A DNA stretch of 38,776 nucleotides, taken from the NCBI GenBank assembly GCA_012797735.1, contig JAAZOP010000036.1:1-38776 (forward strand). Reading direction: 5' to 3'. The notes under the pieces are model-generated. The model ran no database searches and had not been told where the DNA came from. It worked only from the letters and a program-made list of their open reading frames with translations. Position 1 is the stretch's first letter. Each line of letters opens with the position of its first letter. Below are positions 213 through 6,706 of this stretch, piece after piece. Made by a program: the position numbers and the translations under genes. The DNA comes from Myxococcales bacterium. GTDB lineage: Bacteria > Myxococcota_A > Polyangia > DRWM01 > JAAZOP01.

Positions 213-2369
213 TCAGGCCGATGGATGGGTCGCGTCCGCCTGTGCGGCGCCGGCCGTGCTGTCCGCGGAAGCCTTCGCCTCCGCCCCGGCCTCCGCGTCG
301 GCGGTGCGCTGCGGGAGGCTTTGCATGACCAGCGTCGCGAGGTCGATCACCTGGAGTCTGTCGTCGAGGTCGGCGAGCTTGACCGAGTCCTCGAGCATCT
401 GCTTGCAGTAGGCGCAGCCGGTGACGATCGTGTCGGCGCCGGCCTCGGCGGCCTGGCGGACGCGCAGGTTGTTGATCCGCTCGCCGACCTTGAGGTCCAT
501 CCAGTAGTGGCCGCCGCCTCCGCCGCAGCACAGGCTCTTCTCGTGGTGGTTCCTCATCTCGAGCACGGTGGCGCCGGGGATGGCGCGCAGCACCTCGCGC
601 GGGGAGTCGTAGACCTTCTGGTAGCGGCCGAGGTAGCAGGGATCGTGGTAGACGATGCGGCGGGGCGTTCCGCGTTCCAGGCGCAACTCGCCGCTCCACA
701 GCGCCTCGTGGAGGAACTCGCTGTGGTGCACGACGTTGAAGTCGCCGCCGAACTGCCGGTACTCGTTCTTGAGCACGTTGTAGCAGTGCGGGCAGGAGGT
801 GAGCATCACGCGGAACTTGCGCTGCTTGATCCGCTCGACCTGCGCCTTGGCGATCTCCTGGAACAGCCGCTCCTCGCCCATCACGCGGGCCGGGTCGCCG
901 CAGCAGGTCTCGTCGGCGCCGAGCACGCCCCAGTCGAAGCCGCAGCGGTCGAGGAGCCGGCAGACGTCGGCGGCGATCTTCTGCTTGTTGGGGTCGAAGC
1001 TGGTGCAGCAGCCGATCCAGTAGATGATGTCGACGTCGTCGCCGGGTCCGACGACGCGGGCGCCGAGCTGCTCGAGCCAGGTGACGCGGTCTTCCTGGAG
1101 GCCGAACGGGTTGCCGTTGGCCTCGAGCATCTTCAGCGTGCGGGCCGCTTCGGCCGGCACGCGGCCCTGGATCAGCACCTCGTTGCGCCGCAGCTCCATC
1201 AGGGTGTCGACGTGCTCGATCGCCGCGGGGCAGACCTCCATGCAGGCGGTGCAGGTGCGGCAGAACCAGATGAAATCCTGGTCGAAGGCGTTGCCGACGA
1301 GGCAGGGCGCTTCGGGCGCGGCGGCGTCGGGCTTCGGCGCTTCGCCGCCGTTGCCGCCGCCGTTGGATCCGGCGGGGACGCGGGGGGTGTGCAGCAGTTC
1401 CTTCTGGCCGGCGATCAGGCGGCGCGGGGAGAACGGGTGGCCGGCCTGGGTCGAGGGGCAGATCTCGTCGCAACGGCCGCAGGAGATGCAGGCGTCGGCG
1501 TCGAGCCGCTGTTTCCAGGTCAGGTCGGTGGTCCGCTCGATGCCGACCCGGAAGTTCGCCTCGTCGAAGTCGTCGGCCGTCATCATCGCCTCGATGTCGA
1601 CCCGCGCCAGCTCGCCGCGCGGCTTGAGCTTCTGGAGGAAGACGTCGGTGGGGAGGGCGAGGAGGTGGACGAACTTGGTGTAGGGGATGCTGGCGATCCA
1701 GCCCATCGCGAACACGGTGTGGGTCCACCAGAGGACGCGGTGCATCGCGCTTCCGTCTTCCGGGGAGATGCCCCGCCAGGGGAGGCTGAACAGGAGGCCG
1801 ACGGGGGAGAGCCACGGCCACGGGTCGCCGAGGGTCGCCATGCGCAACCCTTCGGTGACGAAACCGGTGAGCACGAGCAGGGCGATCAGCGCGAGGGCGA
1901 AGCTGTCGGCGGGTCCGGTCTCGAGCGTCTTGGGTTTCCGGACGTAGCGGCGCCAGGCGGCGATGCTCACGCCGACGAGGATCAGCACGCCGGCCAGTTC
2001 GGCGGCCAGCGTGAGGAAGACATAGAGCCAGCCGCGGAAGAGGGTGGTGCCGAAGTCGTAGTCGAGGGCGACGACGGCGGTGACGCCGGCGAGGACCACG
2101 AAGGAGTAGAAGATCAGGCTGTGGAAGAAGCCGGGCAGCCGCGAGTTGCGGACGCGCTTCTGGAAGATCAGTTCGCCGAGCAACAGCTTGAGGCGCTGGC
2201 CCCACGCGGAGAACTTCTCGCCGCGCGGCCGGCCGCGACGCCAGAACTGCACGCGCTGGTAGACGCCCCAGCCGAAGATCGCCAGCGCGGCGAGGAACAG
2301 CACGTACATCGGCCACGCGGGCGAGATGTTCCACATGATCGGACGGGCAGCCTGGGAGAGATCGGGCAT
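213..2369 (-). CDS. Membrane-bound heterodisulfide-reductase-related Fe-S oxidoreductase (HdrF/FadF-like: NarI-like TM domain, 2x[4Fe-4S], two CCG domains)
   Basis: N-terminal hydrophobic helices with His residues (FHSLIF, WTHTV, FVHLL); ferredoxin motifs CISCGRCDEICP and CRTCTACMEVCP; CCG-domain motifs TCCG..SCPHC and HDPCYLGR..LCCGGGGG..GCAYC. Start placed at ATG 2369 because GGAG lies 6 nt upstream; TTG 2384 is the alternative. Confidence 0.9.
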   Translation of the reverse strand: MPDLSQAARPIMWNISPAWPMYVLFLAALAIFGWGVYQRVQFWRRGRPRGEKFSAWGQRLKLLLGELIFQKRVRNSRLPGFFHSLIFYSFVVLAGVTAVVALDYDFGTTLFRGWLYVFLTLAAELAGVLILVGVSIAAWRRYVRKPKTLETGPADSFALALIALLVLTGFVTEGLRMATLGDPWPWLSPVGLLFSLPWRGISPEDGSAMHRVLWWTHTVFAMGWIASIPYTKFVHLLALPTDVFLQKLKPRGELARVDIEAMMTADDFDEANFRVGIERTTDLTWKQRLDADACISCGRCDEICPSTQAGHPFSPRRLIAGQKELLHTPRVPAGSNGGGNGGEAPKPDAAAPEAPCLVGNAFDQDFIWFCRTCTACMEVCPAAIEHVDTLMELRRNEVLIQGRVPAEAARTLKMLEANGNPFGLQEDRVTWLEQLGARVVGPGDDVDIIYWIGCCTSFDPNKQKIAADVCRLLDRCGFDWGVLGADETCCGDPARVMGEERLFQEIAKAQVERIKQRKFRVMLTSCPHCYNVLKNEYRQFGGDFNVVHHSEFLHEALWSGELRLERGTPRRIVYHDPCYLGRYQKVYDSPREVLRAIPGATVLEMRNHHEKSLCCGGGGGHYWMDLKVGERINNLRVRQAAEAGADTIVTGCAYCKQMLEDSVKLADLDDRLQVIDLATLVMQSLPQRTADAEAGAEAKASADSTAGAAQADATHPSA

Positions 2370-2444
2370 GACCGACTCCGCCAACCCCCCGCGCCCGCGG
2401 CGCGGGCCGCCGGAGAAGCGGCGCCGTGGCGGGCGGAACGGGGA

Positions 2445-5232: not shown

Positions 5233-5251
5233 GGCGTTCGCGGAGGAGGCG

Positions 5252-6706
5252 ATGGAGAAGACCACGGCCAAGGTGCTGGTGATCGACGACGAGCCAAGCG
5301 TCTGCATCAGCTGCCAGAAGATCCTGCGCGAGGAAGGCCACGTGGTGGAGTACGTGCTGTCCGGGATCGAAGGCGTGCGGCGGGCCGTCGCCGGCAACCA
5401 CGACCTCGTCCTGCTCGACCTCAAGATGCCCGACGTCTCCGGCCTGGAGGCGCTCGAGCAGATCCGCCGCGAGCGGCCCGAGCTGCCGGTGATCATCATC
5501 ACCGGCTACGCCACGATCCAGACCAGCATCGAGGCGGTGCGCAAGGGGGCGTTCGACTACATCCCGAAGCCCTTCACCCCGGAGGAACTCTCCCTCGCCG
5601 TCCAGAAGGCGCTCGAGGACCGCCGGCTGCGCAGCGAGAACGAGTACCTCAAGCAGGAGCTGACCGCGCTGCGCCAGGGCACGCCGATCCTGGGGCGCTC
5701 GAAGGCGATCGAAGACATCATCCGCCAGATCCTCAAGGTCGCCCCCACCGACTTCACGGTGACGCTGTACGGCGAGTCCGGCACCGGCAAGGAGCTGCTG
5801 GCGCAGGCCTTGCACCGGCACAGCCGGCGCGCCGACAAGCCCTTCGTGGCGGTCGATCTCTCCGCGCTTTCGCCCACGCTGCTCGAGTCCGAGCTGTTCG
5901 GTCACGTTCGCGGGGCCTTCACCGGCGCCACGCACGGCCGGCCCGGCTACTTCAGCATCGCCCACGGCGGCACGCTGTTCCTCGACGAGGTCGCGAACAT
6001 CAACCTCGAACTGCAGGGCAAGCTGTTGCGCGTGCTCGAGACCCGACGCCTGCGCCCGGTGGGGAGCGAGCGCGAGCAGGAGATCGACGTCCGGGTGATC
6101 ACGGCGACGAACCGCGACCTGTTCCAGCTCGTGGAGGAGGGGAAGTTCCGCGAGGACCTGTACTACCGCTTCAACGTGATCCCGATCATCGTGCCGGCGC
6201 TGCGCGAGCGGTCCGAGGACATCCCGATCCTGGCGCACCACTTCCTGGAGCAGGCCCGGCAGTCCACCCCGACTCCGGTCCGAGGCTTCAGCGGCGAGGC
6301 GATGGCGCGGCTGATGGCCTGGCACTGGCCGGGCAACGTGCGCGAGCTGCGCAACATCGTCGAGCGGCTGGTGGCGACAGCGGACGGCGACGTGATCCGG
6401 CTCGAACATCTGCCGCCGGAGATCCGCGGCGCCGGGGGTGCGCCGGTGGCCGCGGAATCCGCGCCGGGCGACGGCGACGGAGGGGACGGCGACGACGTCC
6501 CGGAGACCGCCGAGGAGCTCAAGCGGCGCAAGGCCCGGCTGCGCCAGTCGGTGTCGGACCGGCTCGAGCGGCGGTTCGTGCTGCGGGCGCTGGAACGCTC
6601 CGGCTGGAACGTCACGAAGGCGGCGCAGTCGGTCGGCATGCAGCGGCCCAACTTCCATGCGCTGATGCGCAAGTTCGGCATCCGGGCGCGGGACGTCGAC
6701 GCCTGA
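5252..6706 (+). CDS. Sigma54-dependent response regulator (NtrC family: REC-AAA+-Fis HTH)
   Basis: REC domain (VIDDE, LLDLKMP, KPF); Walker A GESGTGKE; GAFTGA; LFLDEV; FREDLYYR; WPGNVREL; C-terminal WNVTKAA HTH; SD GGAGGAGG. Confidence 0.96.
   Translation: MEKTTAKVLVIDDEPSVCISCQKILREEGHVVEYVLSGIEGVRRAVAGNHDLVLLDLKMPDVSGLEALEQIRRERPELPVIIITGYATIQTSIEAVRKGAFDYIPKPFTPEELSLAVQKALEDRRLRSENEYLKQELTALRQGTPILGRSKAIEDIIRQILKVAPTDFTVTLYGESGTGKELLAQALHRHSRRADKPFVAVDLSALSPTLLESELFGHVRGAFTGATHGRPGYFSIAHGGTLFLDEVANINLELQGKLLRVLETRRLRPVGSEREQEIDVRVITATNRDLFQLVEEGKFREDLYYRFNVIPIIVPALRERSEDIPILAHHFLEQARQSTPTPVRGFSGEAMARLMAWHWPGNVRELRNIVERLVATADGDVIRLEHLPPEIRGAGGAPVAAESAPGDGDGGDGDDVPETAEELKRRKARLRQSVSDRLERRFVLRALERSGWNVTKAAQSVGMQRPNFHALMRKFGIRARDVDA

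Follow-up and report, generated by a model that had tools for sequence, protein, structure and literature searches.

A catalytically dead serine-recombinase domain beside an EtfD-like membrane oxidoreductase in a conserved sigma-54-linked module of Myxococcales and other bacteria

The 38,776-nt contig JAAZOP010000036.1 of a Myxococcales bacterium, analysed here over its whole length and referred to as the window, carries close to its left end four genes arranged as two divergent pairs around an AT-rich spacer. On the reverse strand, positions 2445 to 2933 encode a 162-amino-acid (aa) stand-alone serine-recombinase catalytic-domain protein without catalytic residues, called RES below, which is preceded by a GGAGGA ribosome site. 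An intergenic spacer of 75 nt (2370 to 2444, same strand) separates it from the gene for a membrane oxidoreductase of the EtfD/HdrF/FadF type (213 to 2384, reverse strand), an open reading frame (ORF) of 723 aa from TTG 2384 that likely starts at ATG 2369 and then encodes 718 aa; the two genes are presumed to be co-transcribed. On the forward strand lie the genes for a sensor histidine kinase (3259 to 5232; likely start, ATG 3322) and for an NtrC-family sigma-54 enhancer-binding response regulator (5252 to 6706), recognised by Pfam and by GAFTGA in its translation and hereafter called the activator. Between the two pairs are found a sigma-54 (-24/-12) box, TGGCACGTTCCTTGAT (2983 to 2998, reverse strand), and two 19-bp imperfect palindromes that are candidate upstream activator sites, a proximal one (3082 to 3100) reading TGTATA-N7-GCTACA on the reverse strand and a distal one (3212 to 3230) reading TGTATA-N7-AACACA. 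The GC content of this spacer is 0.47 to 0.49 around 2900 to 3200, against 0.73 for the 5.3-Mb genome. The four genes, the spacer, and the box were all found where the initial annotation of this DNA had placed them, and the 75-nt gap that it gave holds with ATG 2369 as the start of the oxidoreductase. The kinase, activator, palindromic operator, sigma-54 promoter, RES, and EtfD-like oxidoreductase very probably form a real, conserved, and apparently undescribed module.

The fold of RES was assigned by profile and by structure. Against the Pfam Resolvase family (PF00239), RES scores 38.2 bits (cut-off, 23.3), over profile positions 17 to 97 only. Its AlphaFold2 model has a mean predicted local distance difference test (pLDDT) score of 85.8, with a confident core at residues 1 to 120 and a low-confidence tail. 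Disorder is predicted for this tail, which runs from about residue 125 to residue 162 and ends in a conserved RPxRLxF motif. The top Foldseek matches of the model are all serine recombinases (E values down to 2.2e-06), and the best 12 of its VIA-align matches among 48,161 chains are all serine-recombinase catalytic domains (Z scores, 9.0 to 14.5), including the TP901-1 integrase (Z score, 14.5; root mean square deviation, 2.8; 113 residues aligned). Its matches in the ESM Atlas are resolvase-domain clusters only. RES is a single-copy gene in the genome of the window, and its relatives in the databases are annotated just as "recombinase family protein."

Compared with serine recombinases such as the TP901-1 integrase (3BVP), Bxb1, Sin, and gamma-delta resolvase, RES has the same fold and keeps the Tyr of the YxRVS motif, the equivalents of gamma-delta Asp36 and Arg45, the last Arg of the DRLxR motif, and the D..S...R loop before helix E. 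However, the nucleophilic Ser is replaced by Ile or Val, the first Arg by S, C, or A, and the Asp-Arg of DRLxR by Trp plus A, C, or S; helix E is short, there is no helix-turn-helix (HTH) domain or zinc ribbon, no association with mobile elements is seen, and fusions to receiver domains occur. In the profile alignment, Y-T-R-V-S of the TP901-1 integrase, in which we take S12 to be the nucleophile, faces Y8-V9-S10-D11-I12 of RES, and D-R-L-S-R faces W79-(A/S)-L-S-R83. Among 48 RES relatives, the nucleophile position 12 is occupied by I (37 sequences), V (7), T (2), A (1), or N (1) and never by Ser, while position 10, that of the first catalytic Arg, holds S, C, A, T, G, N, or Y and in none of the 48 an Arg. 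Ser10 of RES coincides with Ser10 of gamma-delta resolvase in numbering only and not in the alignment. The catalytic Arg and Asp set of gamma-delta resolvase comprises R8, D67, R68, and R71. In place of D67, RES has W79 (Trp in 44/48 relatives); at the R68 position the 48 relatives have A, C, S, T, or V; and the R71 equivalent, R83, is kept in 46/48. In total, RES has lost four of the seven active-site positions that were compared.

Other positions of RES are conserved. D47 and R57 are each kept in 46/48 relatives, Y8 in 48/48, and W109 in 46/48; a D-x-x-S-Q-x-x-R loop is also kept, and eight positions are invariant across the 48 sequences, whose identity to the window protein goes down to 30%. 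No HTH, recombinase, or zinc-ribbon domain was detected in RES by Pfam, and helix E is truncated in the model to about 9 residues (111 to 119), after which the low-confidence tail begins. Judged by its residues and domain content, RES is a catalytically dead recombinase fold that is unable to cut DNA and has no DNA-binding domain. The claim of the initial annotation that the resolvase-like protein is dead is upheld by the alignment to the TP901-1 integrase and by the residue counts in the 48 relatives. An active recombinase or an invertible promoter was considered and rejected: the catalytic residues and a DNA-binding domain are absent, and no inverted repeats were found in the spacer, with a repeat search that also missed the short-armed palindromes (these were found by alignment and pattern counts). 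A role for RES as a DsrC-like thiol/disulfide substrate of a DsrK-like CCG enzyme was rejected as well, as the sole common cysteine, C111, is present in 39/48 relatives and there is no second one.

Relatives of RES number 26 in a clustered protein database. An exhaustive profile search returned 43 representative clusters with an E value of 1e-30 or better, and 102 when the limit was relaxed to 1e-10, in a list that merges into ordinary recombinases below about 1e-12. A locus survey with one genome per species gave 43 RES loci, all on contigs of metagenome-assembled genomes (MAGs), which are labelled Myxococcales/Deltaproteobacteria/Bradymonadales, Acidobacteriota, Krumholzibacteriota, Nitrospirales, Bdellovibrio, Thermodesulfobacteriota, Paceibacterota, or unclassified. 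The genes at these loci were tallied by local tblastn with the four window proteins, loci with enough flanking sequence being counted as informative. In 35/41 informative loci, the gene directly downstream of RES, across a short gap, encodes an orthologue of the oxidoreductase. The activator is adjacent or nearby in 29/34, and a kinase is nearby in 31/39 (divergent from RES in 27 and otherwise near in 4). The initial annotation had staked its case on this linkage not being lost in other genomes, and for both the oxidoreductase and the activator the linkage is widely kept. The family is sparse: of 201 genomes sampled evenly across the window's phylum, 6 have a match, one of which is weak.

Downstream of the oxidoreductase, Pfam scans found no recurring family among 115 ORFs from 38 of the 43 loci; the ORFs belong to unrelated families, e.g., PilZ, beta-lactamase, MFS, M19 peptidase, OPT, and PIN. 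The near-duplicate locus L009 was left out of these scans, and loci with no called downstream ORF (e.g., L001, L002, L029, and L039) contribute none. The operon therefore appears to end with the oxidoreductase gene. On a Paceibacterota-labelled contig with a GC content of 0.30 (L031), a RES homologue lies among many small same-strand ORFs and a DNA methylase gene, with a sigma-54-like box matching 10/11 consensus bases. The genome, of 0.9 Mb, has no oxidoreductase, and the contig may be a phage, a mobile element, or mis-binned.

The box TGGCACGTTCCTTGAT, read from 2998 to 2983 on the reverse strand, has one mismatch to TGGCAC-N5-TTGCW, an A for C at -12; the GG is present, and the -12 position reads GA where GC is expected. 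The closest relatives, L001 and L002, share TTGAT at -12. The box is the sole intergenic match with one mismatch in the window, and with standard spacing the +1 position is predicted near 2972, giving a 5' untranslated region of about 39 nt. At up to two mismatches the window holds seven sigma-54 matches, against 9.35 expected from shuffles; the box alone is thus within chance, and it is the comparative data that carry the case. A box with at least 9/11 consensus bases, with the GG and the -12 G required and searched within 400 nt upstream, was found before RES in 33/43 loci, 44 to 178 nt from the RES start, whereas about 1.6 would be expected from a background of 0.038 per 400 nt of one strand over all loci, true sites included. 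The sigma-54 box that the initial annotation had assigned to RES thereby gains comparative backing. Two Krumholzibacteriota loci (L022 and L024) keep the gene module and the palindromes and have a best box of 7/11 bases; L018 and L014 are similar. Divergent promoters or misplaced start codons could lie behind the weak boxes of these four. No terminator-like, sigma-70-like (consensus scan), or sigma-54 site was found in the 75-nt spacer between RES and the oxidoreductase. Over positions 1 to 3400, the consensus scan found no sigma-70-like site, and the single terminator-like site, against 1.3 expected, lies within the AT-rich spacer.

An alignment of the spacers of the four closest loci revealed invariant TGTATA blocks. 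The hexamer TGTATA/TATACA occurs three times in the 38.8-kb window, each time in the AT-rich spacer (2978 to 2983, 3095 to 3100, and 3225 to 3230), and 21 times in the 5.3-Mb genome. The hexamer at 2978 to 2983 overlaps the -12 element of the sigma-54 box, as it does in L001. In more distant loci, the hexamers pair as 19-bp TGTATA-N7-TATACA palindromes. With up to two mismatches allowed, such a palindrome lies within 500 nt upstream of RES in 38/43 loci, and the 20.8 kb upstream of RES hold 68 sites, compared with 10 in 505 kb elsewhere, two of which precede a second RES gene in L025. The sites at 3082 to 3100 and 3212 to 3230 are the only two in the 5.3-Mb genome, so the regulator looks dedicated to the RES locus. 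They lie 130 bp apart, with the proximal centre about 95 nt upstream of the -24 element and the distal site about 92 nt before the likely kinase start. The proximal palindrome is conserved in L001 to L003, the block GTCAAG..TGTATA at the distal site is invariant in the four closest loci, and paired sites about 105 to 140 bp apart recur in many loci. From this distribution we infer that the palindromes are the binding sites of the activator. The palindromic operator is a newly recognised element that was not part of the initial annotation.

The kinase is predicted by Pfam to have the domain order sCache_3_3-HAMP-HisKA-HATPase_c, and two membrane segments flank the periplasmic sCache_3_3 domain. 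Its best NCBIfam model is AtoS, at 219 bits far under the cut-off of 646, and its relatives align only from query residue 9 to 11 onward. The activator matches Response_reg, Sigma54_activat (4.2e-66), AAA_lid_14, and HTH_8, a Fis-type HTH. Its scores against the NCBIfam models ntrC (424 bits; cut-off, 558.6) and AtoC (420 bits; cut-off, 714) are both below cut-off, and it is therefore neither an NtrC nor an AtoC equivalog, only a member of the family. AtoS/AtoC and other NtrC-family two-component systems share with the window a periplasmic-sensor kinase, a REC-AAA+(GAFTGA)-HTH activator, a divergent target operon, and palindromes about 100 to 250 bp upstream of a -24/-12 promoter (a putative one in the window). 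In contrast to AtoS/AtoC and NtrC, the window proteins score far below the equivalog cut-offs, and the site (TGTATA-N7-TATACA) and the targets are different, with a regulon that seems to consist of one locus.

The oxidoreductase matches the Pfam families CCG (9.3e-34, in two stretches), Nitrate_red_gam (4.4e-08), and Fer4_8 and has a NarI-like haem-b membrane domain at its N terminus, along with two 4Fe-4S motifs and a pair of CCG domains. Among solved structures, EtfD of Mycobacterium smegmatis (9ojn_A; E value, 1.2e-94) is its best relative. Mycobacterial EtfD shares the single polypeptide, the five-helix haem-b membrane domain, the two cubane 4Fe-4S sites, and the two CCG domains (PMC13083937, here and below as given in the accessible portion of that paper). 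H88 and H240 of the window protein align with EtfD His78 and His241, which are named as haem-b ligands (PMC13083937), and are invariant in 30 orthologues. Also invariant in these are C299/302/305/309, C375/378/381/385, C459/460, C494/495, C531/H533/C534, C583, C619/620, and C657/660. The EtfD ligands of haem b and of the two cubane and two CCG clusters match invariant residues of the oxidoreductase, including the His of CPHC. The HdrF-like type that the initial annotation had proposed is borne out by the EtfD match and these aligned cofactor ligands.

There are also differences. EtfD (PDB 9OJN) has a disordered C terminus of about 265 residues that the window oxidoreductase does not have, and the window gene, unlike that of EtfD, is predicted to be co-operonic with RES and sigma-54-controlled and has no linked etf genes. 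The first CCG motif reads ETCCGD (C494-C495) in the window and ETCTGD in EtfD, where the Cys-Thr has been linked to a linear 3Fe-4S cluster (PMC13083937). In its complete first motif, the window protein resembles heterodisulfide reductases and differs from EtfD. Given Cys-Cys rather than Cys-Thr, it is therefore called an EtfD-like relative here, orthology to EtfD not being established. By homology, the oxidoreductase would wire its cytoplasmic CCG and 4Fe-4S clusters via haem b to the quinone pool, and it is likely to serve in passing electrons to quinone from acyl-CoA dehydrogenation or from a comparable donor in the cytoplasm.

HdrF of Desulfobacterium autotrophicum HRM2 is a membrane-anchored HdrD-like protein, and all three hdrF genes of this strain adjoin genes for electron-providing proteins, glpAB or etfAB (PMC2702500, accessible part). 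In line with the initial annotation, which expected no recombinase folds beside such genes, the HdrF genes described in that part of the source lie beside glpAB or etfAB and not beside recombinase folds. At the window locus, in contrast, a dead recombinase domain takes the place of a flavoprotein as the neighbour, and control would be by a dedicated pair of a Cache kinase and an NtrC-type activator. No etfAB, glpAB, or acyl-CoA genes are linked to the oxidoreductase in the window or in the scanned downstream ORFs of related loci, the exception being FadE in L004 (see below). The ETF alpha gene of the window's genome lies on a separate contig (C442). The same genome (G000) has four further matches to the oxidoreductase, the best of them 35% identical. 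This full-length paralogue is located on contig C508 (locus L046; 539 to 2653, reverse strand), preceded by a 153-aa ORF of no family and a gene for a DUF1232 protein and followed by fliO; neither RES nor etf genes were found among its neighbours.

Three kinds of variant were seen among the loci. The first, L004, has the same kinase, activator, box, and palindromes, and its RES gene is followed by one for a 604-aa acyl-CoA dehydrogenase instead of the oxidoreductase. This dehydrogenase passes the NCBIfam equivalog-domain model for Bacillus-type FadE (NF058590; 732.8 bits; cut-off, 600). Elsewhere in this genome there is also a RES-oxidoreductase pair (L006) that has the cis-elements and no adjacent kinase or activator. 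Either of two links between acyl-CoA and quinone thus serves as the cargo of the regulon, and the variant suggests electron flow from beta-oxidation to quinone. FadF and FadE of Bacillus subtilis are a further comparison for membrane-anchored HdrD-like proteins, and the FadE of the L004 operon is a point of likeness to them.

The second variant is a fusion of RES to a receiver domain. The exhaustive profile search yielded six representative clusters of such fusions, and L040 is a seventh; an earlier word-index search for longer fused forms, weak as evidence, had found none. The fusions found join RES to receiver domains only, and W79, R57, and R77 are not conserved in them. In L040, the kinase, the activator, and the receiver-RES protein are encoded in one strand-run, followed by a 583-aa soluble protein (P0175; 8505 to 10256). 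This protein stands in the place of the oxidoreductase and has no Pfam or NCBIfam family; it could be another target of RES. The genome of L040 has a separate sigma-54-driven RES-oxidoreductase pair behind TGGCATGGGGTTTGCA. The model of one fusion has two confident domains joined by a disordered linker (predicted template modelling score, 0.45) and shows no confident inter-domain packing, and it was set aside as uninformative about mechanism. A metagenome scan for the context of the fusions returned 80 loci, none with a RES domain, the patterns picked having fallen on the receiver domain; L040 is thus the sole locus that shows the surroundings of a fusion gene. Taken with the sigma-54 control, the fusions imply that RES action is signal dependent, through transcription in some lineages and through phosphorylation in others; from these architectures, RES would behave as a signal-gated effector domain.

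The third variant is the number of RES copies, which is one in 29 loci, two in tandem in 13, and three in one, so that tandem paralogues are present in 14/43. Two copies are found in L013, L026, L028, L033, L034, L036, L037, L039, L041, L042, L043, and L032; L029 has three, and in L025 the second copy lies 5 kb away. A long form of about 160 aa, with a disordered linker and C-terminal RPxRLxF, is usually single, and a short form of about 145 aa, often with a Cys at position 10 and with no tail, usually comes in tandem pairs. The two forms hint at heterodimers. The FadE-type operon variant, the tandem paralogues, and the receiver fusions are, like the palindromic site, additions to what the initial annotation contained.

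Co-folding of RES with the oxidoreductase gave an interface score (ipSAE) of 0.54 (0.51 to 0.57 in three runs), with the best of three controls at 0.00. At least 68% of contacts are common to the runs, and the partner has a pLDDT score of at least 69. When the method was calibrated, 116 of 157 solved complexes reached the mark, as did 2 of 215 mismatched pairs; among those that reached it with scores of 0.60 or under were just 18 of the 157 complexes and both passing mismatches; these counts hold only roughly here, since purpose-made alignments (30 and 48 sequences) were used. With the conserved adjacency as prior, the co-fold model leans towards binding between RES and the oxidoreductase.

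We propose that the locus forms a regulon of its own, in which a single signal controls a single operon. The Cache domain of the kinase would sense a periplasmic small molecule, perhaps a fatty or other organic acid, as the FadE-carrying variant operon suggests. The kinase would phosphorylate the activator, which would bind the two TGTATA-N7-TATACA palindromes in the AT-rich spacer and open the sigma-54 promoter before RES, leading to joint production of RES and the oxidoreductase. RES would dock on the cytoplasmic head of the oxidoreductase as a noncatalytic partner, where it would serve as an adaptor or as a gate through which electrons enter. It would be available on signal only, by way of sigma-54 transcription here and of phosphorylation in receiver-fused lineages. 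For the core of this proposal, that RES is a noncatalytic, signal-gated partner of the oxidoreductase, we estimate a probability of about one in two. The initial annotation had gone as far as making RES a component of an electron-transfer unit; of this, the adjacency stands, and the co-folding check (0.54 versus 0.00) is weak. Given the receiver fusions and the occurrence of RES without the oxidoreductase (6/41 loci and two genomes), a signal-gated regulatory or adaptor domain fits equally well.

Several observations weigh against this proposal. The in silico support for binding is weak, and the residues most conserved in RES (Y8, D110, S113, and R117) are also conserved in true recombinases, so that they may be structural and uninformative on a binding surface. 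The oxidoreductase is not next to RES in 6/41 loci (L004, L030, L031, L032, L040, and L041); a complete Thermodesulfobacteriota genome has RES with a best oxidoreductase match of 35% identity, the level of a paralogue, and a 0.9-Mb genome has RES and no oxidoreductase match. The -12 element of the window box reads GA, and sigma-54-like boxes are frequent in this GC-rich genome, where 441 sites have at least 9/11 consensus bases. The loci, all from MAG contigs with genes called by a purpose-made ORF script, include the near-duplicates L008/L009, L016/L017, and L036/L037, and the counts therefore overstate independence somewhat. The link of RES to the promoter and the regulator is also no looser than its link to the oxidoreductase. 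Fusion to a receiver is typical of regulatory outputs, and together with this promoter tracking it favours a different account, in which RES feeds back on its own regulators.

In that account, RES would be a feedback modulator of its own pathway. It would bind the kinase or the AAA+ domain of the activator, in the manner of PspA binding to PspF, with the oxidoreductase or FadE as mere cargo. RES always lies directly behind the promoter and palindromes, and what follows it is the oxidoreductase (35 loci), FadE (L004), or nothing on the same strand (L041 and L032); L040 has the receiver-RES gene in one strand-run with the kinase and activator genes; RES occurs in genomes without an orthologous oxidoreductase; and the regulator seems dedicated to one locus, a setting in which autoregulatory loops are common. 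However, feedback does not require the co-fold score of 0.54 over controls of 0.00, RES-oxidoreductase pairs persist far from kinase and activator genes (L006, L017, L023, and L131), and the tandem paralogues in 14/43 loci are left unexplained. We regard feedback as possible but doubtful. A bolder form of the partnership between RES and the oxidoreductase, which we hold to be unlikely, is that the dead recombinase is a new signal-output module that, once turned on through sigma-54 transcription or through phosphorylation of a fused receiver, clamps the cytoplasmic CCG head of an EtfD-type enzyme and serves as a valve on the flow of beta-oxidation electrons into the quinone pool.

Alternatively, RES could be an electron-donating or substrate-binding subunit, with a flavin, a CoA thioester, or something similar held in the old phosphate pocket, and could take the place of EtfAB or GlpAB. 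Described HdrF genes cluster with genes for electron-providing proteins (PMC2702500, accessible part), and RES holds that position in an operon with no other conserved donor gene. The old pocket is partly kept (D47, R57, and R83, each 46/48), near-invariant aromatics have been gained (Y8, 48/48; W79, 44/48; W109, 46/48), and the first CCG motif of the oxidoreductase is complete, as in catalytic Hdr and unlike in EtfD. Against these points, RES has no recognisable cofactor motif and no conserved Cys pair (C111, 39/48), and every strong structural neighbour of RES is a recombinase. Fusion to a receiver would be odd for a redox carrier, and W79, R57, and R77 are not conserved in the fusions. A donor subunit thus appears improbable.

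A continued action on DNA, be it architectural or site binding at the promoter or as the inactive partner of an unknown active recombinase, is very improbable. The recombinase fold, the basic tail of the long form (RPxRLxF..KRR), and the overlap of a TATACA half-site with the -12 region in the window and in L001 would fit such a role, and receiver domains are most often fused to DNA-binding outputs. However, RES has no HTH, recombinase, or zinc-ribbon domain, its helix E has about 9 residues, and 4/7 checked active-site positions are lost. Neither the short-form nor the fused members have the basic tail, the spacer is without the inverted or direct repeats typical of recombination sites, and the family is chromosomal, syntenic, and not tied to mobile elements, with L031 as a possible exception. 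The least tenable reading is that the adjacency is meaningless and RES a decaying mobile-element remnant caught between the promoter and the oxidoreductase gene: the sparseness of the family (6/201 genomes) and the bare annotation of its members would suit it, but clear purifying selection with eight invariant positions in 48 sequences at identities down to 30%, synteny across several phyla with the cis-elements before RES itself, and the lack of frameshifts and of internal stops (one MAG, L029/L032, in which adjacent copies read through, is a possible exception) make it, by RES conservation and synteny, already close to refuted.

Some further features of the window were noted. The contig ends 212 nt beyond the end of the oxidoreductase gene. 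The stretch is present in wastewater, sludge, and soil DNA data sets (four runs compared), in which one contig reaches 1,438 nt past the left end of the window; two runs that bear an RNA-Seq label are probably DNA. A run of Complex I genes lies at 26109 to 31980 on the reverse strand (chain 3, 30-kDa, 49-kDa, NuoG-like Fe-S, NuoH, and 4Fe-4S subunits); no NuoE or NuoF genes are found between the 49-kDa and G-like genes, and an uncalled gap at 31069 to 31620 could hold nuoB. Two window ORFs, at 22679 to 26059 (forward strand, 1126 aa) and 21957 to 22724 (reverse strand, 255 aa), match no Pfam family at E values up to 1e-6. The 1126-aa ORF has a GC3 of 0.82, the lowest among the called genes, and may for this reason be a false call.

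No published description of the RES family or of receiver-resolvase response regulators was found in a literature search, and in the accessible part of a review on the recruitment of mobile-element genes, serine recombinases figure only in DNA inversion, integration, and resolution (PMC8987985). A recombinase domain that has lost its chemistry and DNA-binding parts and yet remains under strong purifying selection, with the same metabolic and regulatory surroundings in several phyla, amounts to an exaptation. If the clamp and valve described above were real, RES would represent post-translational two-component control of respiratory electron input, built from an exapted recombinase. EtfD/HdrF enzymes carry beta-oxidation electrons to menaquinone in mycobacteria and probably in many anaerobes. 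The donor docking site on EtfD is stated to be unknown (PMC13083937), and a conserved small partner in a sister clade would offer a handle on the donor-docking surface of EtfD. The module is compact and tractable, comprising a single sensor and a single activator, a 19-bp operator, and one promoter for two products, and it may be a convenient entry to what the uncultured Myxococcota and Acidobacteriota of sludge and sediment sense and oxidise.

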